Source: a virus. From it: DNA of 64,000 bases. Both the position numbers and the translations under genes were made by a program. Position 1 is the stretch's first letter. Each line of letters starts with the position of its first letter. The DNA is taken from positions 16,840 through 80,839 of IMG/VR virus record IMGVR_UViG_3300027801_002650; one strand, given 5' to 3'. This document shows positions 3-24,662 of this stretch, in pieces. The notes beneath the pieces are model-generated. The model was not told the origin of the DNA and did not search any database. It saw only the letters and a program-made list of their open reading frames with translations.

Positions 3-209
3 CACTTAGCTGAGTCAAACTCATCCTACTGGCACCACTTCAAATACTCAGGGTTGTGTACAATGTGTGCTGGTGCAGTATTTTTGCTAGGAATAGTTCA
101 TACATTTTTTCCGTTTATCGGTGACTGGTGGACAATTAGACTGTCAGAGAAAATATCAAAAATAACATATGAACAATTTGGATATAAGAAACTACAAAAA
201 AGAGACTGA
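3..209 (+). CDS. 5'-truncated small hydrophobic protein, DUF6356-like (absent from the ORF track)
   Basis: Frame 3 is open from the window edge to TGA at 207-209: HLAESNSSYWHHFKYSGLCTMCAGAVFLLGIVHTFFPFIGDWWTIRLSEKI... The H-x6/7-Y-x2-H ... G-x2-H-x3-P-F pattern resembles DUF6356 (recalled, not searched). Overlaps the next gene. Confidence 0.5.
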   Translation, partial: HLAESNSSYWHHFKYSGLCTMCAGAVFLLGIVHTFFPFIGDWWTIRLSEKISKITYEQFGYKKLQKRD

Positions 210-1125
210 GGAAATCATTCGTAAGTGGGAAAGAAAAGAGGATTTCACTTATTATACGTCAGGGTCAACAGGGGTGCCCAAGAAAATAACACATTCCTGG
301 AAATTGATGACAGCTGTTGCTGAGGAGAATTGCCTCTATAATAACTATACAAAGAATGATGTAATAGTAAACGCATGCCTTCCAGCATCCTCAATCGGAT
401 ATCCAGTTCTTTCTGTTTTACCTGCTTTGCTGACAGGATGCAGGTTGCAAACAATTGAGTTTAATCCTTATTCATATCTTGATGTGGTAAAGGAAGCAAC
501 TCATATGTTTATTCTTCCAGCAGTGTATAGAGTTATTAAAAAAACTGATAAATGGAAAAAATTTGATTGTACTGGGAAAATAGTATCTTGTGGTGCTGAC
601 ATTGTACCCGAGGGAATCAAGGAAGACGTTTTATCAAAAGGTGCTAAGAAGTTCCATCATTTATATGGATCGACAGAAGTGCCTCCTGCGATTTCCGACT
701 CAGAAGATGAAAGACAGATCGGCCAAAACCTTTCGCCTTTGATTGATTACTATGTCGAGAATGATGAACTGTTTATCAAATGGAAAAGTCAGGAATCATA
801 TTGGCAATCTGGGGACTTGGTCGATGAGAACATGAGAGTAACAGGCAGAAAGAAAAATATCCTAGCATTGAACTGTTCTCGCATACAACCTGAGACCATT
901 GAGAGATACGTACTGGATAACACCAACGTAAATAAATGCCTGCTTACAACCAAAAAAGACAAGGTATGGATGTATTTTGATGGTGACGAAGAAAATGATG
1001 TTGTTAAAGAAAGGGTACAGGAGTGGTATAAAGATTCTCCTGTCACAGTAAAAAAAGTTGGCAAAATATTAGTCAACAAAATGAATAAACTAATAAGAAC
1101 CGCACAGTACGAAGGAGTTTCATGA
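169..1125 (+). CDS. ANL-superfamily adenylate-forming enzyme (AMP-binding / acyl-CoA ligase-like), compact
   Basis: Core motifs YYTSGSTGVPK (A3), YGSTE (A5), SGDL (A7), GRKK (A8) and C-terminal NKMNKL (A10-like lysine). Confidence 0.85.
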   Translation: MNNLDIRNYKKETEEIIRKWERKEDFTYYTSGSTGVPKKITHSWKLMTAVAEENCLYNNYTKNDVIVNACLPASSIGYPVLSVLPALLTGCRLQTIEFNPYSYLDVVKEATHMFILPAVYRVIKKTDKWKKFDCTGKIVSCGADIVPEGIKEDVLSKGAKKFHHLYGSTEVPPAISDSEDERQIGQNLSPLIDYYVENDELFIKWKSQESYWQSGDLVDENMRVTGRKKNILALNCSRIQPETIERYVLDNTNVNKCLLTTKKDKVWMYFDGDEENDVVKERVQEWYKDSPVTVKKVGKILVNKMNKLIRTAQYEGVS

Positions 1126-1886
1126 TCGGTTTTATCAATATAGTCAAATGTCTTATTGAAGATTATAAGGTGGATAACGCATTTGATCTAGAACAGCTGA
1201 TTCTCTTAAAACGAGAACATAATATGCAATTCTCGAATATGGGGGAGCCACCTACAAAGTTCGTTTATTATGACGAAGACCTAAAAGAATATAATATGAT
1301 ATTCATGTATCTCAGAGAAGCAGATATGATTGAGCAATATGTTGATTCCGTTAAGGATTCAGGGCAAACCAAATTTCCAGAAGAGTATATTGTTTCAAGA
1401 TATGGCTCAATGTCAGACCTGAATGTTGCGATTAGACCTATCGACATTCCTGACACTCTTATTTCAAAGATGAGGGCAACTTTAGAGTTAGGGCACATTA
1501 GATGGTCTGACAAAAAGAGATTTGCTAGCATTGATATTTCTACCGAAGATAAGTTTGTTAAGTGGATAAATACTAATGAGATAGATAAGATTTGGACAAC
1601 CATACCAGAGGAATTGGATGGTGAAAACAAAGCAGAGCAATTTGAAATCTGGATTAGTCAAAAAGGAATAGCACTCAACGTTGAGTATCAAGTGAATGCT
1701 GATAACGATAACGTGAGATATTCTAAAGACCAAGAACAAATATCAGATGTGGTTCCTGCTGGTCTTAGTTTATACCAGGACGAACTCAAACAAGTTATTG
1801 ATCAAGCAAAAACTGCTAAATTTTCTGATGAATTCTTTTCAGCATTAACTGGCGCAGGTGCAACAGTAGACAAAACACAATTTTGA
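1122..1886 (+). CDS. hypothetical protein (254 aa)
   Basis: Long ORF with ATGA overlap upstream and TTGA overlap downstream; no motif recognised. Confidence 0.7.
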   Translation: MIGFINIVKCLIEDYKVDNAFDLEQLILLKREHNMQFSNMGEPPTKFVYYDEDLKEYNMIFMYLREADMIEQYVDSVKDSGQTKFPEEYIVSRYGSMSDLNVAIRPIDIPDTLISKMRATLELGHIRWSDKKRFASIDISTEDKFVKWINTNEIDKIWTTIPEELDGENKAEQFEIWISQKGIALNVEYQVNADNDNVRYSKDQEQISDVVPAGLSLYQDELKQVIDQAKTAKFSDEFFSALTGAGATVDKTQF

Positions 1887-2962
1887 GCAAATATTTTTGT
1901 GCATCACCTTTTACCAGAATGACCAGGTCTCCGAATGGTGACCTGAGAACCTGCGTGTATTCCCCACCTTTAGAGGGAGAATACACAAACATTCTTAGTG
2001 CTTTCAAGTCTGACGAAATGGAGACAATTCGCCAAGAGATGAGAGACGGTAAACGAAGACCTGAATGTGAGTGGTGTTATTTTTATGATGAATCCAACCA
2101 ATATTCCTGCCGACAAGACATAAACGAACGATACCCAGAACCACCATCTACACAGTTACGAGAATTAGATTTTGCTGCCTCAAACAAGTGCAACTACATT
2201 TGCGTAACTTGTGACGAGTCTGCTTCATCTGGATGGGAACAGAGAAACAAAGAATTTAGATTTGCTGCTAATGAAATCAAACATAAATTACCTGCTGACC
2301 TATCAGGGATTAGCAATCTAAAACAATTAACAATCATGGGTGGTGAGCCAACTATTGAACCTTACTACACTAATGAGTTCTGGGATTTGATCGAGAGTAA
2401 GACAGACAAGAACTTGTGGTTCCAGATGGTCACAAACTGCTCAGCATTCCCCAGCAAAAGATGGATGGATTTTCTCTCGGGTCTTGAGCATGTCAGCATA
2501 GGAATATCGTTAGACGGCATAGGAGAAGTCGGAGAGTTCTGCCGACTAGGTTGGAAAGAACGACCTTGGCGCAAAAACTTTTTGAAATGGATGAAGTTTT
2601 TTGATAGAGGATATGAGCTTGGGTCAAGGCATGACGGACCTTGGATAAATATTGTACTTAGCAATTATAATATATTATTCAGTGCTAAGACTTTGAAATA
2701 CGTTTCAGAGTTTGGTATGAGGCATCGAGTCATGCTCACAACTGCCTTTGAACCTGACTACCTCTGTCCTGCATATCTTCCCGATAAATTTAAAGAAGAA
2801 ATAGAGTTAATGGAGTATTTTGACGACAATCATCGAGACTTTGTTATTGACGTGTTAAAAACAGGTGAGTACAGCGAACCTGTGTATAAGAAGTTCCAAG
2901 ACTACACTAAATATTTAAACGCATTTGTGAAAGTACCAGAACCATGTCTACATTTTGTATGA
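1883..2962 (+). CDS. radical SAM enzyme #1, class A (N-terminal twitch/SPASM-like Cys domain)
   Basis: CNYICVTC (CxxxCxxC), MGGEP, SLDG; N-terminal FCASPF...TC...CEWC; TTG start. Confidence 0.92.
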   Translation: MSKYFCASPFTRMTRSPNGDLRTCVYSPPLEGEYTNILSAFKSDEMETIRQEMRDGKRRPECEWCYFYDESNQYSCRQDINERYPEPPSTQLRELDFAASNKCNYICVTCDESASSGWEQRNKEFRFAANEIKHKLPADLSGISNLKQLTIMGGEPTIEPYYTNEFWDLIESKTDKNLWFQMVTNCSAFPSKRWMDFLSGLEHVSIGISLDGIGEVGEFCRLGWKERPWRKNFLKWMKFFDRGYELGSRHDGPWINIVLSNYNILFSAKTLKYVSEFGMRHRVMLTTAFEPDYLCPAYLPDKFKEEIELMEYFDDNHRDFVIDVLKTGEYSEPVYKKFQDYTKYLNAFVKVPEPCLHFV

Positions 2963-4092
2963 GTCCATTCGTAAGAATGACGCAATGGTGGAATGGTAAT
3001 CTTAATACCTGCACTCATTATGGTGAAATGTCTGGTGACGGGACTGACATTGAGAAACAGGTGTTCATACCCGATGGTAAATATGATAGCCTCGCAGAAG
3101 CATTCGAGGGTGAAGAGATGGAAGACCTCAGACAGAAAATGCTGAACGGCAAGAAGCTCGAGGGATGCCGTTACTGTTATCATTTAGAATCTTTAGGACT
3201 CATGAGTTTGAGGGAGAGCATCAACTCCTGCTATGATGTTTCTGCAAGAAAAAAAGAGTTGAAGGAAATAGAGATTTATCCTTCAAACAAATGCAACTTT
3301 AGATGTACTATCTGTAACTCAGAAGCAAGCAGTGTATGGGGGAATACCACAATGCAAACTCCTGGAAGAATTCCTTCAAATCCATATATGCTTGACGGAC
3401 TTGGTGATATGAATTTGATTACTATCTCAGGTGGTGAGCCAATTATCATGCCAGATTATGATGGAGACTTCTTTGAGGGCAGGTCTACGAAAATGTTCAC
3501 GATGGCAACCAATAACTCAGTATTTCCTAGTGACCAGTTCTTTGAGTTCTTGGAAAGGTGTGAGGATATTTTAATATATCTTAGTTTGGACGGTATAGGG
3601 GAAGTTGGAGAATGGTGTCGCAAGGGTTTGAAGATGTCGAGATTTGAGAGGAATATGTACAAATGGCAACACTGGTTTGAGAATAGTAAGTTTGAGAGAA
3701 AGGGTAATCCTGATTACAAACTGCGACCACCTTACCTTACTGGTCTGAGAATAATGTATGTGATGCAACCATATAATATTCTAAATATGTATGAGACTCT
3801 AGAATGGGCAGAAGAACACGACATTATTTTAGATATGAGAAATTGCTACTCGCCAGAAAAATTGAATGTTGCCTACTTGCCCGATAGTATTAAGAATGAT
3901 ATTATGCAGGAAACAAAATTCTACAACGACGACCATAGAGAGTTCGTTGAGAAAATACTTGCATCTGCTAAATATGATGAGAGCAGGACAAGAGACTTTA
4001 TAGAGTATACAAAATACTTGATGGTGCTTGACGAAATACCTAGTCAATCATTGGAGATTTATAAAAAATGTTTGGATATAATCTCAGATTGA
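2944..4092 (+). CDS. radical SAM enzyme #2, class A
   Basis: CNFRCTIC, SGGEP, SLDGIGEVGE; N-terminal FCMSPF...TC...CRYC. Confidence 0.92.
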   Translation: MSTFCMSPFVRMTQWWNGNLNTCTHYGEMSGDGTDIEKQVFIPDGKYDSLAEAFEGEEMEDLRQKMLNGKKLEGCRYCYHLESLGLMSLRESINSCYDVSARKKELKEIEIYPSNKCNFRCTICNSEASSVWGNTTMQTPGRIPSNPYMLDGLGDMNLITISGGEPIIMPDYDGDFFEGRSTKMFTMATNNSVFPSDQFFEFLERCEDILIYLSLDGIGEVGEWCRKGLKMSRFERNMYKWQHWFENSKFERKGNPDYKLRPPYLTGLRIMYVMQPYNILNMYETLEWAEEHDIILDMRNCYSPEKLNVAYLPDSIKNDIMQETKFYNDDHREFVEKILASAKYDESRTRDFIEYTKYLMVLDEIPSQSLEIYKKCLDIISD

Positions 4093-4673
4093 ATGTCGAT
4101 GATCATGTCTGGACTAACTCCAAAGAACTGTACAGTCCAGAAAGGCATGTCATCATTGACAAATACAGAGACGGGTGCACAAGAGTTCCTTGTTGCCGGA
4201 ATGACAATATAGGATTAGAAAACTCTAGTTGGCCATTGCCTGTATTTATTATTTGGGCAAATGGTATTTATGTCAACCATCTCATGTGTTTTATGACTGA
4301 GGATGAAGCATTACGTTGGGTGCAACAGTGGATTAGAGAGGAAAAGGGTAAAAACTGTGGGAGATGGAACTTCCCCCACATCCACGCACATAACGTATTC
4401 GGCAATGATGTTTCATCTTTTTTACATCCTGTCTTTGATGGAGGCAAATTTATCGAGACAGTGACAGATGGACAGATAACAAATGAAAACTTCTGGAATG
4501 GTGGAACAATGGAAACATATCAAAATCACACCATTTTTAAAACAGATGCGGTAAACTCCTTTGATGTTATGGATCATTGGTTTGGTGTAGAAACCTACGC
4601 CAATGAGTTTATCGAATCCTTTTATGATGAACCCTGGCCAAGCGATTGGGATCTTGATTTGGTAATGAGTTAA
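4068..4673 (+). CDS. hypothetical protein (201 aa)
   Basis: ORF overlapping the upstream gene within the operon; no motif recognised. Confidence 0.65.
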   Translation: MFGYNLRLNVDDHVWTNSKELYSPERHVIIDKYRDGCTRVPCCRNDNIGLENSSWPLPVFIIWANGIYVNHLMCFMTEDEALRWVQQWIREEKGKNCGRWNFPHIHAHNVFGNDVSSFLHPVFDGGKFIETVTDGQITNENFWNGGTMETYQNHTIFKTDAVNSFDVMDHWFGVETYANEFIESFYDEPWPSDWDLDLVMS

Positions 4674-4680
4674 AAAAATT

Positions 4681-5166
4681 ATGGAATTTCAGTTTGAAGT
4701 AAGAAGCAAAATATACCCAAGCAAAACCTGGGACACCACCGACCAGTTCTGTATCGATCATGATCATTCTATACCAATGCATTATCAAAAACGCATACTT
4801 GAAATAGCATCGGAGTATGGCGTTTACAGAAAAATAGAAATGCTAAACGACGGCAAGGGCATGAAGTTGTATGCTCGTCTACCTTCCCCAACAATGTTTT
4901 CTGAATGGCTAGCCAAAAGAATAGACTATTTCTATGAGGCAAAGAACTCAGAAACAGAAGAAGACATGGAGGGAGAGATCCCTTATTTTCCAAACTCTTT
5001 TCAAAAACGATGCTGGCATTTGTCAAACTTCTCTCCCTTGATTCCCTACGATATTTTTTGGGAGAATGTGCATAAAGCATTTGACCTCGCAGAACACGAA
5101 TGCAAACTCAACTTAGACACTTTCAATGTTACAGCAAAAAAGGCATATCATGACCTTTATTCCTAA
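4681..5166 (+). CDS. hypothetical protein (161 aa)
   Basis: ORF filling the operon; no motif recognised. Confidence 0.65.
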   Translation: MEFQFEVRSKIYPSKTWDTTDQFCIDHDHSIPMHYQKRILEIASEYGVYRKIEMLNDGKGMKLYARLPSPTMFSEWLAKRIDYFYEAKNSETEEDMEGEIPYFPNSFQKRCWHLSNFSPLIPYDIFWENVHKAFDLAEHECKLNLDTFNVTAKKAYHDLYS

Positions 5167-5902
5167 AGAAGATTTTGAAAGACTGCATCATCAAAACATC
5201 ATACCAACAGATATGAAAATAAATGTAGAAGATTTTAAGTCTGAGATCAAAAATTATGACCAACACTTTTCCCAATGGGGAGACAAGTTCACAGACCTGG
5301 CTAGACTTGGATTGCCGTTGGTCAATAAAAATGGTAAACTTGGCAACAATCCCGAACCTGCTTGTTGGCCATTGGACAGATGGAACTTTGTTAACTTGGG
5401 ATACGAAGATACGGACGAAGGATTTACAGAGTTCTATAAAAATATACAGGAAAATATATTGTCTGACAAACTTGAACTTGAAATAGATTTTACTGAACCA
5501 ACAAAAGCATTGGATATGAAATCCCTTGATCCTCTGAATGACATCAAAGAATACATGGTTCGTAGTTGTATTCTTAAATGGGACACCCGTGCCCACTTCA
5601 AACCTCACTATGATACGTGGCACCCTGTTAGATGGCTGAGACTTTGGGGTACAACAGATCCCGACAGCATGTATTTAAGATTTAGAGCAGAAGACGATAA
5701 TACAGATGGCTTTTGTATGTGGAATGAAACCAACCAAGAGCATGAAATTTATAAAGCAGAAGAGAACATTGAAGCAGGTAGACTGTACCTGATGAATACG
5801 TTGAAATGGCATGACGCATTTGCCTTCAACGATAATGTACACCAGTTCTTTATAGCATTAAATATTGATTCTTATGAACACATTTTGCATGGCACCATTT
5901 AG
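5150..5902 (+). CDS. 2OG-Fe(II) oxygenase-like protein (Asp/Asn beta-hydroxylase-like double-stranded beta-helix)
   Basis: H-x-D motif (FKPHYDT) and distal His (GRLYLMNTLKWHDAF). ATG at 5150 preferred over 5126. Confidence 0.7.
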   Translation: MTFIPKEDFERLHHQNIIPTDMKINVEDFKSEIKNYDQHFSQWGDKFTDLARLGLPLVNKNGKLGNNPEPACWPLDRWNFVNLGYEDTDEGFTEFYKNIQENILSDKLELEIDFTEPTKALDMKSLDPLNDIKEYMVRSCILKWDTRAHFKPHYDTWHPVRWLRLWGTTDPDSMYLRFRAEDDNTDGFCMWNETNQEHEIYKAEENIEAGRLYLMNTLKWHDAFAFNDNVHQFFIALNIDSYEHILHGTI

Positions 5903-6941
5903 CAGGATGACTGGCGGTCCCGAAGGGACTTACCGTACCTGTTGCTATCACCCTCCTATCGAAAAAAGATACACTAATGTCCTTGATGCATTTGAGGGTG
6001 GGGAGATGCAAATCCTGAGGCAGAGAATGCTGGATGGTGAGCACATCAAAGAATGTGAATCTTGCTACTATTATGAATCCATAGGCGAACTGTCCCAGAG
6101 ACAGGTCATCAACCAAGAGCATACGTACATAAAAGAATATCATTTAGAAGGTCTTGAAATTTCCTTCAACAACAAATGTAACTTTGCATGTGTCACCTGT
6201 AAACCTGAGTCGAGTAGTATATGGGAAGATCGTGTGGGCAAGATAGACAAAATCACACCTGATTATTCCGGAGTTGATTTTAGCAAACTGAAACATCTGT
6301 CGTTTACGGGAGGTGAACCAACTATACAAAGGGAGTTCTCTCCTAAGTTTTTTGCGATGCTCGATGAGCAAGTAAAATACGATACATTATTTTTTTCAAT
6401 GAACACAAACTGCTCCAAGTTTGTTCATAGACCTTGGGTAGAGTTTATTAATAAGTTGAAGAGAGTAATGATAATGACAAGCATCGATGGGATAGGAGCT
6501 GTCGGAGAATGGGTCAGGTTAGGATTGAAGATGGATATCTGGGAAAAGAATGCTCTAAGGTGGAAAGACCTCTTGAAAGACAATAAAGAATATACTTACG
6601 GAGACATGACAAGTGGTGTCTGGTCAAATTTTGTAATGACAAACTATAACGTGTTCAACGTAGATGAAACTGAAAAATACCTTGCGTCACTTGGTATTCG
6701 GATGAGGAAAACAAATTGTTTTAGTCCAGAGTATCTTAGTCCAGAATATTTGCCTGACGAAATCAAAAAGGAATTACCTGCTAACGATTTTGTGCAGAAC
6801 ATTTTGAATGCAAATGAATATAATGAAAAACACTGCAAGGAATTCATGGTGTATACAAAATACCTTGAGACATTTGCTCCTGCACCTGAAGAAGCAAAAT
6901 TTGTCTATCGAAAATTAGAAGAATACTATGTGGCCAATTAG
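5874..6941 (+). CDS. radical SAM enzyme #3, class A
   Basis: CNFACVTC, TGGEP, SIDGIGAVGE; N-terminal FCMAPF...TCC...CESC. Start taken at MNTFC by analogy with its paralogs. Confidence 0.92.
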   Translation: MNTFCMAPFSRMTGGPEGTYRTCCYHPPIEKRYTNVLDAFEGGEMQILRQRMLDGEHIKECESCYYYESIGELSQRQVINQEHTYIKEYHLEGLEISFNNKCNFACVTCKPESSSIWEDRVGKIDKITPDYSGVDFSKLKHLSFTGGEPTIQREFSPKFFAMLDEQVKYDTLFFSMNTNCSKFVHRPWVEFINKLKRVMIMTSIDGIGAVGEWVRLGLKMDIWEKNALRWKDLLKDNKEYTYGDMTSGVWSNFVMTNYNVFNVDETEKYLASLGIRMRKTNCFSPEYLSPEYLPDEIKKELPANDFVQNILNANEYNEKHCKEFMVYTKYLETFAPAPEEAKFVYRKLEEYYVAN

Positions 6942-15795: not shown

Positions 15796-16625
15796 TAGAT
15801 AGTCCCGAAAGAGAATACACATTAGACTGGTTGCAGTATGAAAGACAGCAACCAATGTACGATGAGAGCATCAATGATTTTTATGCTCGTATTTTTAAGG
15901 AAACTCCAGTTCACGCAAAAACTATTGACGTAGATTTTTTACATGCCTTTGACGAATGGTTGAGAAATCATCAGTTCAGCAGTTTTACAGGAATGGATGC
16001 ATTCCCTGTCAGGCATGTCATACAGGGTGTCACACATTACATCGACGACCTGTATCAGACATATGGTTCTTTGCAGATATTCAAAAATGATTATAAATAC
16101 CACTGGCGACTGAACAATGAAATAGAGTATGCTACTATCGATACCCTGGATAAAAGGCACCTACTTATATCAATGCCGTTTCCTTACTACGGTGATATAC
16201 ATCCTGGCATGTACACAATACTCGATGCGTGTTATGAAAAGGGAATCCCTGTGCATGTTGATGCTGCTTGGATTAGTTGCATACGCAATATTGATTTCAA
16301 TTTTGACCACCCTGCTATTCAGACTTTTGCTATCAGTTTAAGTAAAGGAGGCATAGGTGGTTGTCGAATCGGTGTGAGATATGCACGATGGACAACTGAA
16401 GGACCTATCACATTAATGAATAAGTTTAACATGAATCAACAACCACTGATGTGGATTGGAACACGTTTCATGAAGGAGTTTGGTCCAGAGTATTTTTGGA
16501 AAAAATATGAAAACAAATATAATCAAGTTCTTAAGGATTTCAAACTGCAACCATCAAAAGCAATACACCTTGCTATGAGCAACGGTAAACCTGTTGGTGT
16601 TCGATCACTGCTGAGGGCATTATGA
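15792..16625 (+). CDS. PLP-dependent fold-type I enzyme-like (decarboxylase/aminotransferase-like)
   Basis: VHVDAAW (PLP-binding Asp) followed by SLSKG (Schiff-base Lys) and RIG. Confidence 0.7.
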   Translation: MIDSPEREYTLDWLQYERQQPMYDESINDFYARIFKETPVHAKTIDVDFLHAFDEWLRNHQFSSFTGMDAFPVRHVIQGVTHYIDDLYQTYGSLQIFKNDYKYHWRLNNEIEYATIDTLDKRHLLISMPFPYYGDIHPGMYTILDACYEKGIPVHVDAAWISCIRNIDFNFDHPAIQTFAISLSKGGIGGCRIGVRYARWTTEGPITLMNKFNMNQQPLMWIGTRFMKEFGPEYFWKKYENKYNQVLKDFKLQPSKAIHLAMSNGKPVGVRSLLRAL

Positions 16626-17833: not shown

Positions 17834-18714
17834 CGTCATTTTGTAATATAGACTGCCCAGGTTGTTTCCGGCAAGTCAAAAGGGATAAGGTTGATCATCT
17901 TCTAAACAAAAGCATGATTACTTTAGATCAGATTAAAACATGGCTGACATACAAGAACTTTCCTAACGCAAAACTGGTCAACTTTTGTGGATCGATTGAC
18001 GAACCTACCTTACATCCTGATATGTTGGCAATCTTAGACCACCTTGACGGCATAGACATTAACATATCATCGAATGGCTCAACTAAGACAGAAAAGTTTT
18101 GGGGCGAGTTAGGAAAAAGAAAAATATCTGTTTTCTTTGGTCTTGACGGCATAGACCAGGAGTCACTTGAAAAATACAGGATAGGTGCAAACTTCAAAAA
18201 AGTGCAGGCAAATTGGAGAGCATTCATTAAGGCAGGTGGCAAAGCAACGTGGCAGTTTATAGCATTTGATCACAATGAGCACTTGATGGATGACGCCAAA
18301 CGCATGGCAAAAAAAGAAGGATTTACTGACTTCAGATTGATTTATTCTCATAGAAATGAGAACCAAGAGTCTAAGAAACTACAAAGAAAAGAAGAACAGA
18401 CCATTGTATGTAAATATGGGGAGCAAAATAGAATCTTTATTAGTCACACAGGTGTGATGCTCCCTTGTTGCTTTTTGAACTCAGAGTTCCTACAGTCTTA
18501 TGCTACAAAAGAATACCATACTGACTTTCAACAACTGTTCAAAAATACAGGTGACGTGCTGAACAACAGTTTGAAATATGCTGAGCCAGACGAAATCATT
18601 GACGGGGAATTGTGGAAAGAAATCGTTTCGTCGTGGGATCACAAACCAATATCAAGGTGTGAAACTACGTGCAAGCAAGCAAAGCAAGATGTATTTCTTG
18701 GAGAGACATTATGA
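17776..18714 (+). CDS. radical SAM enzyme #11, class B
   Basis: CNIDCPGC, CGSIDEP, SSNG, WQFIAFDHN, PCCF...CETTC; TTG start uncertain. Confidence 0.92.
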   Translation: MEKKSVWSRESIEWIDVELTSFCNIDCPGCFRQVKRDKVDHLLNKSMITLDQIKTWLTYKNFPNAKLVNFCGSIDEPTLHPDMLAILDHLDGIDINISSNGSTKTEKFWGELGKRKISVFFGLDGIDQESLEKYRIGANFKKVQANWRAFIKAGGKATWQFIAFDHNEHLMDDAKRMAKKEGFTDFRLIYSHRNENQESKKLQRKEEQTIVCKYGEQNRIFISHTGVMLPCCFLNSEFLQSYATKEYHTDFQQLFKNTGDVLNNSLKYAEPDEIIDGELWKEIVSSWDHKPISRCETTCKQAKQDVFLGETL

Positions 18715-19442
18715 AGATAAGTGATTATCGTGAATATGCTAATCGTCTATCTGCATTACGAGAGAAATTGGCCGACATTGAAAAGGTCTTTTACAATGTT
18801 GAAAAAGAACAACGGGCGACGAAGTATGCTCAGGTAGGCAGGTGGATAGAGGGCAATCTGTCACAAGATTATTCACAGTCCTGGGAAGACTCAATGTCTG
18901 CTCAACAGTACGAATCTAAAAAATGGATGGTCGATGAAATAGCAAATCTTAAACCAAAGTTTGAATACTCCGAACCCTGCCACATTGAGGTTGTTGGTTC
19001 TTGGTTCGGGTGGCCATTGATGGAATACATTGATCATGCCTTTCCCAATATAAAACAGGTAGACCTGTATGATAAGGATGAACTGTGCCATCCTGTCATG
19101 GCTCAATACAAAAATCACTTTGCCCCTAAATATTCAGTCCACCAATTTGGTGATTGGTTTGAAAGAACTGATAAAAGAAGAAGGCAGGTGATCATTAATA
19201 CTTCTGGTGAACACATGTCTAACATTTCTGCGAACAAAGAAATGTTCAAAGGAAATCCTCTTATTATCATAATGTCAAATGATTATTTTGATGGAGATGG
19301 CCACACTCACTGTGTCCCTGACGTAGAGGAACTTGTGCGTCAACAAAATCTCGGGGAAACCTATTACACTGGTACACGATCAATGCAGACTTATAACAGA
19401 TTCATGGTGATTGGGAGAATGCATGCTGAAAGTACTGACTGA
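18711..19442 (+). CDS. class I SAM-dependent methyltransferase-like protein
   Basis: SKKW, glycine loop VVGSWFG, acidic DLYD, INTSGEHM, RFMVIG. ATG at 18711 gives an ATGA overlap. Confidence 0.65.
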   Translation: MKISDYREYANRLSALREKLADIEKVFYNVEKEQRATKYAQVGRWIEGNLSQDYSQSWEDSMSAQQYESKKWMVDEIANLKPKFEYSEPCHIEVVGSWFGWPLMEYIDHAFPNIKQVDLYDKDELCHPVMAQYKNHFAPKYSVHQFGDWFERTDKRRRQVIINTSGEHMSNISANKEMFKGNPLIIIMSNDYFDGDGHTHCVPDVEELVRQQNLGETYYTGTRSMQTYNRFMVIGRMHAESTD

Positions 19443-20325
19443 CAAGGGACTGAAGACAGCAACAGTCAGTCAATTAAAACAGAATACAAACTTTAAGGGA
19501 TGGGTTTGCCAACCAAATCAATACGTTATTGACGTAGAGAAATGGACAGTTAGGCAAACAGTTTGCGGACACCCTGACGAACAATCTATTGGAGAGTTTG
19601 TCCCTATCAAAGAAACCATCTGCCCCAACGACAACTGTTTTTGTGGCAATGATATAGAAATGAGAAAAGGAAAGACACACGATTTTCTTAAACTAATCAA
19701 ACATGCCCCCGATAAGATTGACCCGTACAGAGGTGAGAAGATACTCGCCATCGATAATAAAAACAGAGTCAACGTCAACTTTTATACTGAAAAGAAATGC
19801 AATTATAGTTGCTCATACTGTGAACCTGAGAATCATTCATCTACTAAATCCATTGACATCGAAAAATACAAAGAGGCATGGAATACTGTAAATCCAAAAA
19901 ATGTCTCTACCATAAATATATCTGGTGGCGAGCCAACACTCAACAAAAAATATATTGACTTTGTAAAATGGTTGAGCGAACACAATCCTTACGCACACAT
20001 ATCGACATCTACAAATGGATCTAAGTCTGCCGATTATCTTAGGCATCTTAATACATACTCTCACCTAGCGATAAGCATACATTTTGAATTTATTACAGAA
20101 TCCTACATAAAAAAGTTACATAGGTTTCTTTCACACAGAAACGAAAACAAAAAGTCAGTAAGATTAAAATGCATGTTGCATCCAGAAAAAATCCAACAAG
20201 TAAAAAGTTTTATGGACGGATTCAAGGGATATCCGGACATCCAAGTTTCGGTCACTCCTTTGTGGACACCTGGTACAAAAGATATTATGGAATATGAGGA
20301 AGAAGTATGGAATTTAGTGACATAA
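19423..20325 (+). CDS. radical SAM enzyme #12, class C with the Cys domain at the N-terminus
   Basis: CNYSCSYC, SGGEPT, STNG; N-terminal FKGWVC...VCG...CPNDNCFC. Confidence 0.9.
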   Translation: MLKVLTDKGLKTATVSQLKQNTNFKGWVCQPNQYVIDVEKWTVRQTVCGHPDEQSIGEFVPIKETICPNDNCFCGNDIEMRKGKTHDFLKLIKHAPDKIDPYRGEKILAIDNKNRVNVNFYTEKKCNYSCSYCEPENHSSTKSIDIEKYKEAWNTVNPKNVSTINISGGEPTLNKKYIDFVKWLSEHNPYAHISTSTNGSKSADYLRHLNTYSHLAISIHFEFITESYIKKLHRFLSHRNENKKSVRLKCMLHPEKIQQVKSFMDGFKGYPDIQVSVTPLWTPGTKDIMEYEEEVWNLVT

Positions 20326-21359
20326 GGCAAGTACATTTTGAACCATCACAGGGATGCAATGCTTCTTGTCCTATGTGTGACAGGAATCAAAATGGTGGGG
20401 CAGTTAATCATCACCTTACAAATGCTACGTGGACTGCTGAAGAGTTCATGAACAAGATAGACTTTGAGTTTATCAAGAAAACCAACTTCTGGTATTTTTG
20501 TGGGAACCACGGGGATCCACATATGTGTGAGGACCTACCCAGAATTTGTGCGTGGATGAAACAGAAAAATCCAGGGATTCGTTTACTTACCACAACAAAT
20601 GGTGGAGCACGTGATGTGTCTTGGTGGGAAGAACTTGCACAATACTCAGAGGTCAACTTCTCCGTCGACGGACTAGAGGACACAAATCATCTCTATCGTC
20701 AAGGTGTGAGGTGGCAAAGGGTTGAGGAAAATATGGTAGCATTTTGTGAGGCAGGTGGTTTCGCGAAATGGACATTCCTTGTCTTTCGTCACAACGAGCA
20801 TCAGGTTGAGGATGCTAGAAGATGGGCTACGGCACTTGGCGTAAAAGATTTTATTGTTAAAAAGTCAGGCAGGTATATCAACACTGCTACCCTGACTGAG
20901 AAGGATGGCCACCAAGCAGTCAACAAAAAGGGTGAAACGAAACAATACCTCGAGCAACCTTTGAATCCCAAATATCAGAACAAGGCACTGCCCCAGTACA
21001 AGGTGCTAGAGAAAAAGTATGGAACTTTTGATAAATACCTTGAGGTGTGTAAAATAGACTGTAAAGCAGAAGACAAAAAAGAAATCTATATCTCAGCAGA
21101 GGGATACACTTTTCCTTGTTGCTGGTTGGGTGGGCAACCTCTTAAGTGGTGGCGTAAACAAAAATCTGGTGATGTACATGATATGATTGGTGACTACGAC
21201 CTGATAAACATAAAGAAGACACCCCTGAAAGAGATCATAACGGGTGGGTTCTTTAACCGAGTACAGGAATCTTGGACTGGTGACAGACTCAAGACCTGTG
21301 CGTTAAAGTGTAACTCCGGACAAGATAACTACGATCCTTTTTCAGCACAATGGCAGTAA
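20307..21359 (+). CDS. radical SAM enzyme #13, class B
   Basis: CNASCPMC, CGNHGDP, TTNG, WTFLVFRHNEHQ, PCCW...CALKC. Confidence 0.93.
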   Translation: MEFSDIRQVHFEPSQGCNASCPMCDRNQNGGAVNHHLTNATWTAEEFMNKIDFEFIKKTNFWYFCGNHGDPHMCEDLPRICAWMKQKNPGIRLLTTTNGGARDVSWWEELAQYSEVNFSVDGLEDTNHLYRQGVRWQRVEENMVAFCEAGGFAKWTFLVFRHNEHQVEDARRWATALGVKDFIVKKSGRYINTATLTEKDGHQAVNKKGETKQYLEQPLNPKYQNKALPQYKVLEKKYGTFDKYLEVCKIDCKAEDKKEIYISAEGYTFPCCWLGGQPLKWWRKQKSGDVHDMIGDYDLINIKKTPLKEIITGGFFNRVQESWTGDRLKTCALKCNSGQDNYDPFSAQWQ

Positions 21360-22459
21360 AATTCTCACAAACTGACTTTACCAAAATCCCTTGGGACGAT
21401 ATTGAGATGGTGGGGCAATGGACGATGCTCCATCGCGACCTATTCAATGTGTCGTGGTTGCTTGGTAGATACTGTAACTACTCCTGCAGTTATTGCTGGC
21501 CGTATGCTTCAACCAAAAAGAAAGATTGGAGATCGGAAGACCTCGTACTGCTTACTATTGAAGAAATCAAACGACAGGCAAGAGAACGAGGATTTAACTC
21601 GTTCCACTTCTCATTCTCTGGTGGAGAACCCACCGTAGTTCCTACTCTTATTCCTCTCCTAGACAACCTCCGTGAAGATATTGGAAACTGTAACTGGCTG
21701 TCTACACACCTTACCTCTAACATTTCACGGAAAATGAAATGGTGGGAGGAATATTGCCAACTAACTAAGGACTTTCATCGAGTATCAATCACAGCATCCT
21801 ACCATAAAGAGCATATCAATACTCCTGAAAAGAGAGCAGACTTTGCTGATAAACTTGAATATCTTCAGTCACAGGATGTGCAGGTAACGGTCAACTCAGT
21901 AATGATACCCGAGAGATTTGATCACCTCTGGGAAGACGCCAACTACTTCCATGAGAGGAAAATCAACGTGACGTTGAAACCTCAGTCAGATCCCACAGCA
22001 AGTTTTGTGGTTGATGGATACACTGATGAGATGATGAATATACTTCACAATGGTTTACCTCAGCAAGATTTCACTGAAAGAAAAAGGCAGGTTGTCAGAC
22101 CTACGTCAAAGTTCCCTCGCATGAAAGCGATTGACGGCCAACATTATCAGATTGAAATGCAGGACAAGGACGGGAAAACATGGCGACTTGACCAGGCAGA
22201 GAGGTTCAACTCCTTTGGTTTTAATAAGTTCAAAGGTTGGGACTGCTCATCAGGGTATCGTAGCATAATCATACGGGAACCTGACGGGTCGATCAAAAGA
22301 AGTTATAGCTGCTCGGACGAACCTTTGGGTTATATTAACAAAGGATTTAGATTATTTGATTCTCCTATGCCTTGCATCACTGATTCGTGTGTATCGAGTG
22401 CTGACTCTAAAATACCAAAACGGAAACCCTCGTCAAACGCAGATCTATGGTCCAGCTGA
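21350..22459 (+). CDS. radical SAM enzyme #14, class C
   Basis: CNYSCSYC, FSGGEPT; C-terminal FKGWDC...YSC...PCITDSC. Confidence 0.92.
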   Translation: MAVKFSQTDFTKIPWDDIEMVGQWTMLHRDLFNVSWLLGRYCNYSCSYCWPYASTKKKDWRSEDLVLLTIEEIKRQARERGFNSFHFSFSGGEPTVVPTLIPLLDNLREDIGNCNWLSTHLTSNISRKMKWWEEYCQLTKDFHRVSITASYHKEHINTPEKRADFADKLEYLQSQDVQVTVNSVMIPERFDHLWEDANYFHERKINVTLKPQSDPTASFVVDGYTDEMMNILHNGLPQQDFTERKRQVVRPTSKFPRMKAIDGQHYQIEMQDKDGKTWRLDQAERFNSFGFNKFKGWDCSSGYRSIIIREPDGSIKRSYSCSDEPLGYINKGFRLFDSPMPCITDSCVSSADSKIPKRKPSSNADLWSS

Positions 22460-23139
22460 ACACCCTGAAGTGGGGAGATAAATACGACAATCAATATGTC
22501 AATCGACTGTACAGTCTACTTGGCAAGCACCTTGATCTGCCATTTGTCCTGAGAGTGTGGACAGACAATAAGAAAGGTATTACCAATGAGTGCGAGTTTC
22601 GTGATATCCAAGATCTACGTCCATACGACACAGAACGAATGTTCACGTATGAAAAGTTAATGCTAATAAATAATGATGAAGCAGATGTTAATGGTTGGCT
22701 AGACTTGGACATACATATCAACAAAAACATAACACATTTGGTATCTCGACCTCATCCTAACATTACTTTTATCTGGAACTATTGGAACAATTTTGCTGAT
22801 ATGAGTCTAGGACCTTATGGTAAAGGATCATCCTGTCACGTCAATAGTTCATTTGTATTTTGGGACAGGAACAAAGCGACGTGGTTACGTGAGTACACTG
22901 ATCAAAACTGGGAGAAAATTGCTTGGACATACAAAAGTCTGGATAAGTATTTGTTCTATCAGCATGTAAGAAATAATAGATTGAGTTTTTGGGGTGATAA
23001 TATATTCTCCAATTACAACGTGAATGGGGTAGAAGGATGCGTGACGTTGTTCAACACCTCCCACCTTTATAATAACAATATATCTGTAATGAAAAAACAT
23101 TATGAACTCCACGAAACAGATTTATTCATGGTTAGTTAA
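22447..23139 (+). CDS. GT-A fold glycosyltransferase-like protein
   Basis: KWGDKY...YVNRLY, WTD, DLD (DxD) and NSS motifs. Confidence 0.7.
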   Translation: MVQLNTLKWGDKYDNQYVNRLYSLLGKHLDLPFVLRVWTDNKKGITNECEFRDIQDLRPYDTERMFTYEKLMLINNDEADVNGWLDLDIHINKNITHLVSRPHPNITFIWNYWNNFADMSLGPYGKGSSCHVNSSFVFWDRNKATWLREYTDQNWEKIAWTYKSLDKYLFYQHVRNNRLSFWGDNIFSNYNVNGVEGCVTLFNTSHLYNNNISVMKKHYELHETDLFMVS

Positions 23140-23509
23140 ACACGACGAACTAACCTTTGTCGCATGCAACGAGCTGGAACTGATGAGACAACTTGAAACC
23201 ATGGGTGTAGAGGTCTGGAATATCAACTATGACATAAACTATAACACCGATGATAAAGTAATCTGTAAAGATGCTATCTTTGATGACGTAGAGTTCCACG
23301 GATGCGTGGTTCATTGGAACTGCGAAAAGACCTACCCAATAGGCAGAATCCATAGTGGCGAGTTTATCCTCAGAGGAGACAACCAAAATCACAATGGTGA
23401 CTGTAGTCCAATTAAAAACTGTGAACAACTGATTTCTCAGAATCAACTGAGTGAAGTTTATGATATGTACCAGGATGGTGCTCACACATATGTATATGGA
23501 AGAACATGA
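23102..23509 (+). CDS. small protein, possibly a minimal methyltransferase-like fold
   Basis: CKDAIFDD...VVHWNCEKTYP resembles the INTSGEHM block of the 18711 protein; weak. Confidence 0.45.
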   Translation: MNSTKQIYSWLVKHDELTFVACNELELMRQLETMGVEVWNINYDINYNTDDKVICKDAIFDDVEFHGCVVHWNCEKTYPIGRIHSGEFILRGDNQNHNGDCSPIKNCEQLISQNQLSEVYDMYQDGAHTYVYGRT

Positions 23510-24024
23510 CAATAGTCGTAATGGTTTGCACTGGCGATAAATACAATAAGAATGATGTTGCCAATATAGAATATCAATTGCACAACGTAGGGTTTGATTA
23601 TGATCGTGCTCATGTAATCACAAGAGGCGAAGGATCAGTCTACGATAAACTCAAAATGTTTGAGCAATGTAAGAAAGACGAGAACTACGTCTACTTTGAT
23701 TTAGACTTAATAATCAAAGATCCAATAGACGTGGTTAGAGATGAGTTTACTTTATTGTTTGCTTGGTGGAGACCGCCATTTCACACGCCACTTAACTCCT
23801 CAATAATGACATGGCGTGGTGACCGAAGTGATATAGCAAAAAACTTTAAACGAGAAAAATATGACAAGGGAATAGACGAATATTTTTACAAAGAAGTCGA
23901 ATATAAAATCTATGATAGAATAGCATGGTCTTGGTACTGGGACAAAAGAATGCACGATTTTCCTGTTTGTTTATTGAACCATAACGTAGAAACACCTGAA
24001 TGGACTACAGAGTATATGCCGTAA
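23506..24024 (+). CDS. GT-A fold glycosyltransferase-like protein
   Basis: GDKY, KLKMF, YFDLD and NSSIMTW; paralog of 22447. Confidence 0.7.
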   Translation: MTIVVMVCTGDKYNKNDVANIEYQLHNVGFDYDRAHVITRGEGSVYDKLKMFEQCKKDENYVYFDLDLIIKDPIDVVRDEFTLLFAWWRPPFHTPLNSSIMTWRGDRSDIAKNFKREKYDKGIDEYFYKEVEYKIYDRIAWSWYWDKRMHDFPVCLLNHNVETPEWTTEYMP

Positions 24025-24662
24025 GAATCGGGGAAGGGTACGGTCTCGAACACGAAACAAGACTCGAAAAGCAGTTAGATATTAATTGGATTCGAGACGA
24101 AGAGGAAGGAGTTGCACTCCAATGGAACAAGCTAAGAGCATTCGAGGGCGAGGATTGCCCCGTGGTGCTAATCGACATTGACTTAGAGTTCATGAACGAC
24201 TACAAAGATTTGTTTGAGTTGCCTGTTAAGAGGGGCGAGTTCCTGACTACAAAAAACTGGTACGGGCAAGATAATCCTACAGCAATACATTACAAAATCG
24301 CAGGAGGATTTTACAAGTTTTGGCCAGAAGACACCAAATATATTTTAGATACGTTCAGAAAAGATAAACAATATTGGCAAAATCACTACATCGCTGAGGG
24401 AATAACCTGCGGACCTGTCAATGGGGAAATGAATTTTGTTGAAGATTGTGTCAGAGGGAGAATCGGTGCCACCCCTCTGAAAATGAAATTTGTTCCAGAT
24501 GCGTGGCATACTAAATGGAAAGATAAACCTGAAAAGGAATATATTTACCATATGTCAAAATTATATGATAATGAATATTTATGGTTGGGAGATTTCCACC
24601 CCGATATTAAGCTGGTACACTACCAGCAGGGGAAAGATTTGCCTCATCATCAGGAACCTTAG
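24000..24662 (+). CDS. GT-A fold glycosyltransferase-like protein
   Basis: GEGY, WNKL, IDID, GGFYKF, GEMNFV and C-terminal LVHY. Confidence 0.6.
   Translation: MDYRVYAVRIGEGYGLEHETRLEKQLDINWIRDEEEGVALQWNKLRAFEGEDCPVVLIDIDLEFMNDYKDLFELPVKRGEFLTTKNWYGQDNPTAIHYKIAGGFYKFWPEDTKYILDTFRKDKQYWQNHYIAEGITCGPVNGEMNFVEDCVRGRIGATPLKMKFVPDAWHTKWKDKPEKEYIYHMSKLYDNEYLWLGDFHPDIKLVHYQQGKDLPHHQEP

Follow-up and report, generated by a model that had tools for sequence, protein, structure and literature searches.

A phage radical SAM island with a putative sugar-tailoring role located beside the fibre genes

Radical SAM (rSAM) enzymes have been mentioned in multi-gene modules of T4-like phages since 2010, without a function being assigned. 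The Campylobacter phages CP220 and CPt10 (Timms et al., 2010, PMC2853527) and a T4-like environmental genome with 12 radical SAM genes (Nishimura et al., 2017, PMC5332604) are T4-like phages with 11-12 such genes, in which a swappable central module holds five radical SAMs and a putative amidinotransferase, and only a general metabolic or Fe-S role has been proposed. In pelagimyophages and cyanomyophages, a hypervariable "host recognition cluster" located between the VrlC/fibre genes and the neck genes carries glycosyltransferases and "radical SAM cassettes" (Zaragoza-Solas et al., 2020, PMC7029224), for which the paper gives no function, and the genome announcement of the cultured Pelagibacter phage Mosig EXVC030M does not mention the radical SAM genes of its island. 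Outside phages, twitch/SPASM radical SAM enzymes such as BtrN, BlsE and DesII, together with partner enzymes such as StrB1 and TobZ/NodU, belong to aminoglycoside and nucleoside-antibiotic pathways, whereas GT8-type systems such as GlyE, acting on the serine-rich adhesin PsrP, and glycogenin represent protein O-glycosylation. The NCBIfam family NF033640 (N_Twi_rSAM, twitch domain-containing radical SAM protein) is catalogued but has no characterised member, thus membership gives no function.

Here we describe an island of this kind in an uncultured marine T4-like myovirus (IMG/VR record IMGVR_UViG_3300027801_002650), analysed in a window of 64,000 nt (positions 16,840 to 80,839 of the record). 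The operon starts 4.5 kb left of the window, comprises 35 genes and 29,139 bp, and sits antisense between the neck gene gp13 and the fibre genes. It occupies the same genome position as the host recognition cluster but is much larger than the island of Mosig (14 against 4 radical SAMs), adding ANL, halogenase-family, amidinotransferase and PP-loop genes, and its TerL is only about 54% identical to those of Mosig and cyanophages. No detectable sequence match was found between two of its radical SAMs (W14 and W23) and the Campylobacter and environmental phages above in the phage collection, and the hosts differ.

Gene content of the island

The initial annotation had described 14 radical SAM enzymes among 29 co-oriented ORFs, interleaved with a set of tailoring genes, continuing off the left edge and converging on the fibre genes, and this observation is confirmed. 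Among the 28 complete + strand ORFs at 169-24662, which together with one ORF crossing the left edge give the 29, fourteen carry one CxxxCxxC and hit PF04055 at E-values of 1e-13 to 3e-5, 11 of them above the gathering score, and a six-frame search of the whole contig finds exactly these 14. The three below the Pfam cut-off (W08, W12 and W16) score 194, 161 and 181 bits on NF033640. The enzymes fall into three architectures: seven with an N-terminal twitch domain (class A, NF033640 type), four with a C-terminal SPASM domain (class B) and three others (class C). Six of the class A enzymes exceed the curated NF033640 cut-off and a seventh falls just under it, and all seven have a 4-5 Cys domain before the CxxxCxxC core; the other seven radical SAMs are not members of the family, and none of 14 model genomes has a member over the cut-off. 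At its right end the operon converges on fibre and baseplate genes. At the left it runs off the window edge with seven more genes, namely a carbamoyltransferase possessing both NodU/CmcH-family domains, an unknown protein, an Asp/Asn hydroxylase-like protein, a nitroreductase, an unknown protein, a Trp-halogenase-family protein and the small membrane protein U7. The features of the window are as follows.

1..209 (+): U7, a 74-aa small membrane protein (DUF6356-like) whose ORF begins 16 nt left of the window; the only predicted membrane protein of the operon
169..1125 (+): W01, a short ANL (adenylate-forming) enzyme
1122..1886 (+): W02, unknown, without a homologue in the loci retrieved
1883..2962 (+): W03, class A radical SAM (NF033640, 186 bits)
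2944..4092 (+): W04, class A radical SAM (NF033640, 183 bits)
4068..5166 (+): W05 (4068-4673) and W06 (4681-5166), two unknown proteins without a family hit
5126..5902 (+): W07, a putative 2OG/Fe(II) oxygenase of the Asp/Arg-hydroxylase type
5865..6941 (+): W08, class A radical SAM (NF033640, 194 bits)
6928..7881 (+): W09, class B radical SAM (PF04055 and PF13186 hits)
7884..8843 (+): W10, an amidinotransferase homologue of StrB1/AGAT type with three catalytic residues replaced
8795..9559 (+): W11, unknown, with a GDS(F) motif
9546..10583 (+): W12, class A-like radical SAM (NF033640, 161 bits against a cut-off of 170)
10547..11359 (+): W13, a PP-loop ATP pyrophosphatase with a QueC-like C-terminal Cys cluster
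11349..12773 (+): W14, the hallmark class A radical SAM (474 aa; NF033640, 392 bits; model pLDDT 89)
12766..13914 (+): W15, class C radical SAM
13904..14857 (+): W16, class A radical SAM (NF033640, 181 bits)
14830..15795 (+): W17, class B radical SAM
15792..16625 (+): W18, a putative PLP-dependent fold-type-I enzyme
16622..17833 (+): W19, class A radical SAM (NF033640, 252 bits), containing a perfect sigma-70 consensus at 17193-17221
17776..18714 (+): W20, class B radical SAM
18669..19442 (+): W21, a class I methyltransferase-like protein (GGWYGT motif)
19411..20325 (+): W22, class C radical SAM
20307..21359 (+): W23, class B radical SAM, the partner most often co-occurring with W14 and leading the terminal module
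21350..22459 (+): W24, class C radical SAM
22447..23139 (+): W25, GT-A-like (GT8-like), with KWGDKYG and DLD motifs
23102..23509 (+): W26, a small conserved protein, always part of the terminal module
23506..24024 (+): W27, GT-A-like, a paralog of W28
24000..24662 (+): W28, GT-A-like, facing R193 and R318
24607..25188 (-): R193, a small acidic protein between W28 and R318
25185..26141 (-): R318, a Ser/Thr/Gly-rich protein of unknown family, next-to-last gene (before R193) of the fibre operon and the candidate acceptor

The accessory enzymes proposed by the initial annotation were checked one by one, with uneven outcomes. The ANL ligase W01 is confirmed (PF00501, 5e-15), being N-terminally short but retaining the SGTTG-like, YGSTE, SGD and GRxK motifs, and the amidinotransferase family of W10 is confirmed by a profile comparison against StrB1 (1bwd, 9.5e-80), its best solved match, although in this phage three catalytic residues are replaced. 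W13 possesses the PP-loop SGGADSS and a C-terminal CxxCxxC, but its Pfam QueC hit is only 23 bits. The PLP assignment of W18 is weak (E 6e-5 to 6e-3 to fold-type-I aminotransferases, with a conserved SLSK lysine), whereas the language-model neighbours of W21 are class I methyltransferases and the protein is 31% identical to an annotated methyltransferase of Mosig. The 2OG oxygenase call for W07 rests only on an invariant HxD...H motif and 27% identity to the Asp_Arg_Hydrox protein of Mosig (Mosig_81), with no Pfam or PDB hit, and the SGNH-like call for W11 is unconfirmed, since only a GDS motif is present and searches of Pfam, NCBIfam, PHROGs and PDB profiles gave nothing. W25, W27 and W28 carry a DxD motif, and W27 and W28 are paralogs (hhalign 94.6%). 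At TM about 0.4, the W28 model matches GT8/GT24 folds, including GlyE, glycogenin and LgtC (GT8) and the UGGT catalytic domain, as well as nucleotidyltransferase folds, and the nearest clusters of W25 are "nucleotide-diphospho-sugar transferase"/GT8. However, this GT-A assignment rests on a medium-confidence model (pLDDT 66) and on language-model neighbours: sequence identity to the GlyE and glycogenin folds is about 10-12%, there is no Pfam GT8 hit, and no operon protein reaches a curated glycosyltransferase family cut-off.

Conservation, modularity and genomic context

The island is not a one-off. Close relatives of W14 occur in more than 130 viral contigs, more than 2,900 metagenome protein clusters match this enzyme, and the set recurs in hundreds of viral contigs. 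Two complete relatives carry 14 and 16 radical SAM genes, and relatives examined here carry 10-21. Given also the phages with 11-12 such genes reported in 2010 and 2017 (PMC2853527, PMC5332604), the statement of the initial annotation that bacterial pathways typically use one to a few radical SAMs, taken as a sign that this island is exceptional, overstates its rarity. The genes are intact and under purifying selection, dN being 0.09-0.49 with saturated dS, and omega 0.09-0.24 where it could be computed. The first gene carries the same CTAAATA box as gp13, gp18, gp8 and R132, and five of the 20 copies of this box lie in the 1.4% of the contig that is intergenic. On the other hand, the perfect sigma-70 consensus inside W19 suggests that part of the operon may also be expressed early.

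The new finding concerns R318. Starting from the R318 family alone, 39 of 45 viral loci were found to have W28, W27 or W25 homologues convergent on it within about 0.5-3.5 kb, the other six having 1.1 kb or less of downstream sequence or no recognisable gene; many of these loci are near-duplicates, giving about ten distinct layouts. Upstream of R318 there are three different contexts (gp6-gp8-VrlC-like, gp14-gp15, and unknown), and in one lineage the W14 array is inverted relative to the R318-GT unit. The same pairing exists in a mini-version in Mosig, where Mosig_92 matches W28, Mosig_94 matches W27 (1.5e-48) and Mosig_97 matches the R318 profile (2.3e-11), in convergent order and accompanied by a nitroreductase, four MoaA-annotated radical SAMs, a carbamoyltransferase and a methyltransferase. 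In contrast, the radical SAM array itself is optional and not tied to the fibres. Twelve of 33 R318 + GT loci have no radical SAM gene within 10 kb, so the array may serve another end, and in one complete relative (G002) it lies about 35 kb from the baseplate genes and is followed directly by FolE and a bona fide QueC (5.7e-52), then gp32. Moreover, G002 and another relative (G001) have the W25-W27 block but no detectable R318.

A tentative sugar-tailoring pathway and its alternatives

The interpretation put forward in the initial annotation, a dedicated and apparently uncharacterised modification system most parsimoniously producing decorated glycans or post-translational modifications on virion proteins, is supported in part. 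The first half holds, as no enzyme maps to a characterised pathway, and the second gains one real piece of support from the coupling of the GT-A-like end block with R318 across genome contexts, whereas product and target remain unproven. Our preferred reading, held only tentatively, is that the operon encodes a cytoplasmic tailoring pathway working on a sugar or sugar-like unit taken from host metabolism and ending in transfer by GT-A-type glycosyltransferases. In this view, the radical SAM enzymes would carry out C-H-based edits such as oxidation, epimerisation, deoxygenation or C-C/C-methyl chemistry, while helper enzymes would add or alter substituents, namely methyl, carbamoyl, an amino group via PLP, an amide via the PP-loop enzyme, an acyl group via the ANL enzyme, a hydroxyl, and perhaps halogen or redox steps. 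The terminal module, consisting of W23, W25, W26, W21, W27 and W28, is the conserved core. What the analysis shows directly is the gene content, the family assignments, the conservation, the modularity and the R318-GT linkage; the substrate class, the order of steps and the acceptor, including the presence of R318 in the virion, are inferred.

Several lines favour this reading besides the GT-A-like genes, the R318 linkage, the CTAAATA box that the first gene shares with structural genes, and the purifying selection on the genes. The helper enzymes belong to families that typically act on sugars or cyclitols, the amidinotransferase family being closest to the inosamine-phosphate amidinotransferase StrB1; the equivalent island of Mosig has an ArnB/DegT-type sugar aminotransferase and an epimerase, and another relative (G004) has a DegT-like gene inside its island. 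All operon proteins but U7 are predicted soluble, and no flippase, polymerase or lipid-carrier transferase was found, so the product is made and probably used in the cytoplasm. However, no sugar-activating enzyme (PF00483) occurs in this contig or in four relatives, the radical SAM array is not itself bound to the fibres, the solved structures closest to W14 include peptide maturases, the sigma-70 consensus inside W19 suggests some early expression, and gene adjacency could reflect shared regulation or cassette inheritance rather than an enzyme-substrate relation. The combination of an auxiliary-cluster radical SAM with an amidinotransferase, a carbamoyltransferase and a PLP enzyme recalls antibiotic pathways, and BlsE and DesII are among the fold matches of W14, but here the auxiliary domain is N-terminal rather than C-terminal, the structural similarity is generic (TM 0.3 or less on the query), and there is no scaffold synthase such as a 2-deoxy-scyllo-inosose synthase. 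The GlyE-PsrP comparison is likewise limited to the predicted fold of W28 and the 24% Ser+Thr content of R318, without evidence that R318 is glycosylated.

Among the alternatives, remodelling of the host surface, in which LPS or capsule precursors would be modified on the cytoplasmic face of the membrane, changing receptors to block superinfection or aid release, is unlikely but the strongest rival. GT8, the closest fold class, is mainly an LPS-core family, the Asp/Asn-hydroxylase family also includes lipid A hydroxylases, such a role has been proposed for glycosyltransferases in the same genome position (PMC7029224), and sigma-70-like promoters inside the operon would allow early expression; yet the 35 genes include no membrane-anchored or lipid-carrier enzyme, flippase or polymerase, the first gene has the late-type box shared with structural genes, and the recurrent pairing of the GT block with R318 across contexts is left unexplained. 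Somewhat less likely is a direct, RiPP-like radical modification (cross-linking, epimerisation or methylation) of a phage protein or small precursor peptide, with the GT-like genes as a separate function. Most characterised SPASM enzymes are peptide maturases, the best Foldseek hits of the W14 model are SkfB (4e-7) and CteB, and a hydroxylase, a halogenase-family protein and a nitroreductase occur in some RiPP clusters, but these structural matches have low TM (0.25-0.34), are to generic radical SAM enzymes and do not discriminate. Moreover, there is no precursor-like small ORF in an operon without free intergenic space (32 of 34 junctions overlap), no PqqD/RRE domain hit, leader peptidase or exporter was found, and the N-terminal domain is a 4-Cys twitch-type cluster domain and not a peptide-recognition element.

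A free small molecule, such as an aminocyclitol-, aminoglycoside- or nucleoside-like antibiotic or signal made during infection, is doubtful to a similar degree. The StrB1-type amidinotransferase, NodU/TobZ-type carbamoyltransferase, PLP enzyme, twitch radical SAMs, halogenase-family protein and ANL enzyme together resemble natural-product tailoring sets, and a three-gene version in cyanophage S-SCSM2R has been read as "antibiotic synthesis genes" (PMC12801897). However, no scaffold-forming enzyme, exporter or resistance gene was found, the amidinotransferase is catalytically degenerate in this phage, and the pathway ends in three transferase-like proteins coupled to a phage protein gene. Hypermodification of DNA or nucleotides to evade restriction is the least likely, despite the QueC-like features of W13, the FolE and QueC genes following the island in G002, and the participation of radical SAM and PLP enzymes in thymidine hypermodification. 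Neither TGT/DpdA (PF01702) nor a thymidylate-synthase-type hydroxymethylase (PF00303) was found over cut-off in this contig or in four relatives, two of them complete, although a divergent DpdA could escape PF01702; fourteen radical SAM enzymes far exceed any known DNA-modification route, and the GT block is linked to a protein gene. None of these targets is excluded. If the preferred reading is true, the most likely acceptor is the phage's own Ser/Thr-rich protein R318, and possibly neighbouring fibre proteins, making glycosylation of the phage particle a testable idea: the particle would then carry an unusual glycan, and the swapping of radical SAM cassettes between phages would vary this decoration.

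Gene content and enzyme families of the island

The window covers bases 16840-80839 of an 80.8-kb IMG/VR viral contig judged about 50% complete. The left flank of this contig (L001) encodes portal, tail sheath, large terminase, gp15, gp14 and a gp13-like adaptor on the minus strand, and window 24607-64000 encodes fibre and baseplate proteins, also on the minus strand, including gp6- and gp8-like wedges, a VrlC-like 2061-aa protein and a 3545-aa giant. Portal and TerL are only 52-55% identical to those of cyanomyoviruses, and TerL is equally distant from that of Pelagibacter phage Mosig, hence the contig is assigned to an uncultured marine T4-like (Kyanoviridae-like) phage of unknown host. Near-identical DNA occurs in marine metagenomes of about ten independent studies (eleven are listed, one of which may be the source sample of the window itself). 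Features discussed in this part are as follows.

Contig 12363-13739, outside the window: carbamoyltransferase, first gene of the operon
L001 15608-16840 (+), just left of the window: Trp-halogenase-family protein
Window 169-24662 (+): 28 complete ORFs of the island (W01 to W28)
Window 7884-8843 (+): W10, amidinotransferase homologue
Window 13685-13713 (+): 11/12 match to the sigma-70 consensus, inside coding sequence
Window 17193-17221 (+): perfect 12/12 sigma-70 consensus, inside the radical SAM gene W19
Window 23102-23509 (+): W26, small protein of the terminal module
Window 32306-38491 (-): 2061-aa protein, 23-26% identical to the annotated VrlC of Mosig
Window 40430-51067 (-): separate 3545-aa ORF that follows the gp8-like gene
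Contig 12331-12358 (L001), window 40418-40424 and 53357-53363 (-), and L001 6045-6051 (-): CTAAATA boxes 4-50 nt upstream of gp13, the first island gene, gp8, gene R132 and gp18

The initial annotation had described 14 radical SAM enzymes within a co-oriented gene cluster that continues off the left edge and converges on the fibre genes, and this observation holds. Fourteen of the 28 complete ORFs carry a single CxxxCxxC motif and match PF04055, the other 14 carry none, and a six-frame search of the whole contig finds exactly these 14. Eleven of them reach 29.5 bits or more on PF04055, that is, at or above the gathering score, while W08, W12 and W16 score 24.8-27.2 bits but 161-194 bits on the subfamily model NF033640 (N_Twi_rSAM). 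The operon starts outside the window at contig 12363, 35 nt from the divergent gp13-like gene, with seven more genes: a carbamoyltransferase, an unknown, an Asp/Asn-hydroxylase-like protein, a nitroreductase, an unknown, a Trp-halogenase-family protein and a 74-aa membrane protein (U7). In all there are 35 co-oriented genes in 29,139 bp, with 32 of 34 junctions overlapping. All operon proteins except U7 are predicted to be soluble, and no export machinery was found among them. Against their best orthologues the proteins have dN of 0.09-0.49 while synonymous sites are saturated, for which reason dN/dS by NG86 could be computed for only a minority of pairs, giving omega of 0.09-0.24. These are maintained genes and not decaying copies.

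All-against-all BLAST and NCBIfam divide the radical SAM proteins into three classes, whose paralogs are 20-40% identical and therefore old. Class A (W03, W04, W08, W12, W14, W16 and W19) belongs to or sits next to NF033640. Six of the seven exceed the curated cut-off of 170 bits (W03 186, W04 183, W08 194, W14 392, W16 181 and W19 252 bits), whereas W12 scores 161 bits and falls under it. In all seven the pattern C-x17-C(C)-x20-62-C-x2-C, with four to five Cys, lies before the radical SAM core as a twitch-type domain, and in a 26-sequence alignment C34, C98 and C101 are invariant and C16 nearly so. Class B (W09, W17, W20 and W23) has C-terminal SPASM-type cysteines, six or more in each; on PF13186, with a gathering score of 21.5 bits, W09 (22.6) and W23 (22.3) are over, and W17 (20.8) and W20 (19.1) are under. 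Class C consists of W15, W22 and W24. A confident model of W14 (pLDDT 89) matches only generic radical SAM structures, namely SkfB, CteB, viperin, MoaA, anSME, BlsE and DesII, at TM 0.25-0.34 on the query. No solved enzyme is close, and this fold search cannot separate a peptide from a small-molecule substrate.

Among the accessory enzymes, W10 belongs to a clear amidinotransferase family, since a profile built from W10 and 13 relatives matches StrB1 (1bwd) at 9.5e-80, HsvA at 1.7e-58, SxtG at 1.2e-54 and AGAT at 4e-54. However, W10 itself has lost the nucleophile Cys (GGAHDC instead of GGxHC), the Asp of HxD (GGHVN) and a further Asp (WSASN), and also has a deletion of about 22 residues. All 13 relatives keep the catalytic Cys and the HxD and most keep the further acidic residue, so that W10 is a homologue that is probably inactive as an amidinotransferase, or repurposed, in this phage. 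The carbamoyltransferase has both the Carbam_trans_N and Carbam_trans_C domains (6e-29 and 1.8e-39). The Trp-halogenase-family protein matches PF04820 at 2.3e-60, but its N-terminus reads GGSTAG at the flavin site, where GxGxxG is expected, and no WxWxIP motif was found; about 29%-identical "tryptophan halogenase" genes occur in 81 phage records, including S-RIM44, S-PM2, HTVC008M and Campylobacter phages. W13 is a PP-loop ATPase with a QueC-like Cys tail, matching only the last 50 residues of QueC, W18 is weakly PLP-fold-I-like, W21 is methyltransferase-like, W01 is a short ANL enzyme, and W07 has an HxD...H motif and resembles the Asp/Arg-hydroxylase-domain protein of Mosig. The SGNH-like call that the initial annotation had made, here W11, is not supported beyond a GDS motif. 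W26, always found between the GT-like and methyltransferase-like genes, shares an N(C/S)E(K/H)-type motif with W21 and may be a shortened methyltransferase-like paralog. PDB profile searches found nothing significant for W21, W07, W11 and the fibre-module protein R318, and PHROGs returned nothing for ten unknown proteins.

W25, W27 and W28 share a (K/R)xGDKYG...DxD pattern, with DLD/DID invariant in the three families, and W27 and W28 are paralogs. Fold and language-model searches place them among GT8-like nucleotide-sugar transferases at modest confidence: the W28 model has a pLDDT of only 66, and its matches to GlyE, UGGT, glycogenin and PntC have a Foldseek probability of 0.99 but TM of 0.37-0.45. 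None of the three hits a Pfam, NCBIfam or PHROG model, and none of the 120 best-scoring W25-family clusters, of 614 found, carries a precomputed Pfam domain.

Distribution, mosaicism and linkage to the R318 family

W14 has 134 related viral loci and more than 2,900 metagenome protein clusters, but in isolated phages only distant matches of about 27-29% identity. Megablast of the island against isolated phages found no match, tblastn found none there for W23 or R318, and W10 matched only one marine single-virus fragment. The four apparently bacterial hits are MAG contigs that look like phage. Gene content around W14 is mosaic: a W23-like SPASM enzyme accompanies it in 56 of 80 loci and W21 in about 40, while other genes come and go. 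Different segments of the island also have their best orthologues in different contigs (W01-W13 in loci L003 and L011, W15-W19 in L082, W21-W28 in L021 and W14 in L002), a pattern that indicates cassette exchange. The complete relatives G001 and G002 have 14 and 16 radical SAM matches, and the relatives G003 and G004 have 21 and 10. Such sets have been noted in the literature without explanation. Phages CP220 and CPt10 have 11-12 radical SAM genes and a module of five radical SAM genes plus an amidinotransferase (PMC2853527), a T4-like environmental genome has 12 (PMC5332604), pelagimyophage host recognition clusters contain "radical SAM cassettes" (PMC7029224), and cyanophage S-SCSM2R has three "antibiotic synthesis genes" (PMC12801897).

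Conservation of the neighbourhood beside fibre genes, which had been proposed beforehand as a check, gave a divided answer. The radical SAM array is not tied to the fibres, since only 10 of 84 W14-anchored loci show structural genes within 10 kb. In G002 the array (68-91 kb) is followed by the GT block, then GTP cyclohydrolase I (FolE), a bona fide QueC (5.7e-52) and gp32 (locus L086, G002:C1 91000-110999, at 8229-10719), whereas gp8 and gp14 lie at 128 and 145 kb. The terminal module W23-W25-W26-W21-W27 is present at the end of the array in G001, G002 and G005 (another genome compared).

In contrast, the linkage does hold for R318, the gene that faces the module here, which encodes a protein of no recognised family with 24% Ser+Thr and 14% Gly. 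A single-sequence search for R318 loci found none, but a search of viral contigs with an R318 alignment alone gave 45 loci at 27-54% identity. In 39 of them homologues of W28, W27 or W25 lie just downstream on the opposite strand, and the remaining six have 1.1 kb or less of downstream sequence or no recognisable gene. Upstream of R318 the context varies (gp6-gp8-VrlC-like, gp14-gp15, or unknown genes), 12 of 33 long loci have the GT block without any radical SAM gene, and in one lineage the W14 array is inverted relative to the R318-GT unit. Many of these loci are near-duplicates, and we count about ten distinct layouts. The cultured phage Mosig shows the same design in miniature: a nitroreductase, four radical SAM genes, an ArnB-type aminotransferase, a carbamoyltransferase, a methyltransferase, and a W28-like and a W27-like gene (Mosig_92 and Mosig_94) converge on an epimerase and on Mosig_97, which matches the R318 profile at 2.3e-11 and lies next to VrlC.

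Promoter-like sequences and RNA-library contigs

CTAAATA, a T4-late-promoter-like box, occurs 20 times in the contig, and five copies fall in the 1.4% that is intergenic. Each of these sits on the coding strand just upstream of gp18, gp13, the first island gene, gp8 or R132, and the gap between gp13 and the island holds the box on both strands as an inverted repeat. TATAAATA itself is not enriched, and only the CTAAATA variant in intergenic gaps is. On the other hand, a perfect TTGACA-17-TATAAT lies inside W19 and an 11/12 site lies elsewhere on the operon strand, with promoter-like sites numbering 83 against 61 +/- 7 in shuffles. Parts of the island may be transcribed early by host polymerase. 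Metatranscriptome contigs from two studies cover pieces of the island at 99% identity or more, and the longest on the window (1,700 nt, run X18, window 25132-26829) covers R318 and the start of the 1102-aa fibre gene; however, since these are assembled contigs from RNA libraries that may contain DNA, they indicate presence only and show neither transcription nor timing.

A possible sugar-tailoring pathway and its alternatives

The most economical explanation is a cytoplasmic pathway that edits a host-derived sugar or sugar-like unit by radical and conventional tailoring steps, after which GT-A-like enzymes would transfer it, with the R318-family protein of the fibre module as the best candidate acceptor. 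We regard sugar-type chemistry as somewhat more likely than not, but the full statement including the acceptor remains tentative. The gene content, its conservation and mosaicism, and the pairing of R318 with the GT-like genes are directly observed, while the substrate class, the tailoring and transfer reactions, cluster binding by the twitch-type domain and the acceptor role of R318 are inferred. The initial annotation had taken the island as a dedicated, apparently uncharacterised modification system most parsimoniously yielding glycans or post-translational modifications on virion proteins, and this interpretation is supported in part, through the R318-GT linkage and not through the radical SAM array.

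Four alternatives are less likely but remain possible. Host-envelope remodelling is considered unlikely, though the most plausible of the four. Direct modification of peptides or proteins is less likely still: none of the Pfam families expected of a RiPP cluster (RRE/PqqD domain, leader peptidase or exporter) was hit in the operon, which also has no free intergenic space and no small Cys/Gly-rich ORF that could encode a precursor. A free metabolite is slightly less likely again, and DNA modification is the least likely. A 7-deazaguanine system would combine a DpdA/TGT transglycosylase with FolE, QueD, QueE and QueC, yet PF01702 is absent from this contig and from four relatives (although divergent DpdA could be missed), and no TGT/DpdA was detectable in G002, where FolE and a true QueC sit beside the island. 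Neither a sugar-1-phosphate nucleotidyltransferase nor a ThyA-type enzyme was found in the same five.

A more far-reaching hypothesis, which we hold to be unlikely but not excluded, is that marine T4-like phages glycosylate a fibre-module protein of the R318 family with a sugar rebuilt by radical chemistry. The swappable radical SAM cassettes would then act as a combinatorial engine varying this virion glycan between phage strains, affecting host range or evasion of host defence, and the N-terminal-twitch radical SAM proteins would be a new functional class of sugar-editing radical enzymes, expanded mainly in viruses.

Islands of this type are already known from passing mentions and are uncharacterised; the present one adds a large example, a degenerate amidinotransferase and the R318-GT linkage. 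Radical SAM enzymes perform some of the hardest reactions in biology, yet no member of the family that dominates this abundant type of island has a known substrate. The pairing of GT-like genes with the R318 family, also present as Mosig_92 and Mosig_94 with Mosig_97, turns a long-noticed curiosity into a testable idea of virion glycosylation in a cultured Pelagibacter phage. If the product decorates virions, it would be a new layer of phage-host recognition in the ocean's most abundant phage groups, and a source of new sugar chemistry.
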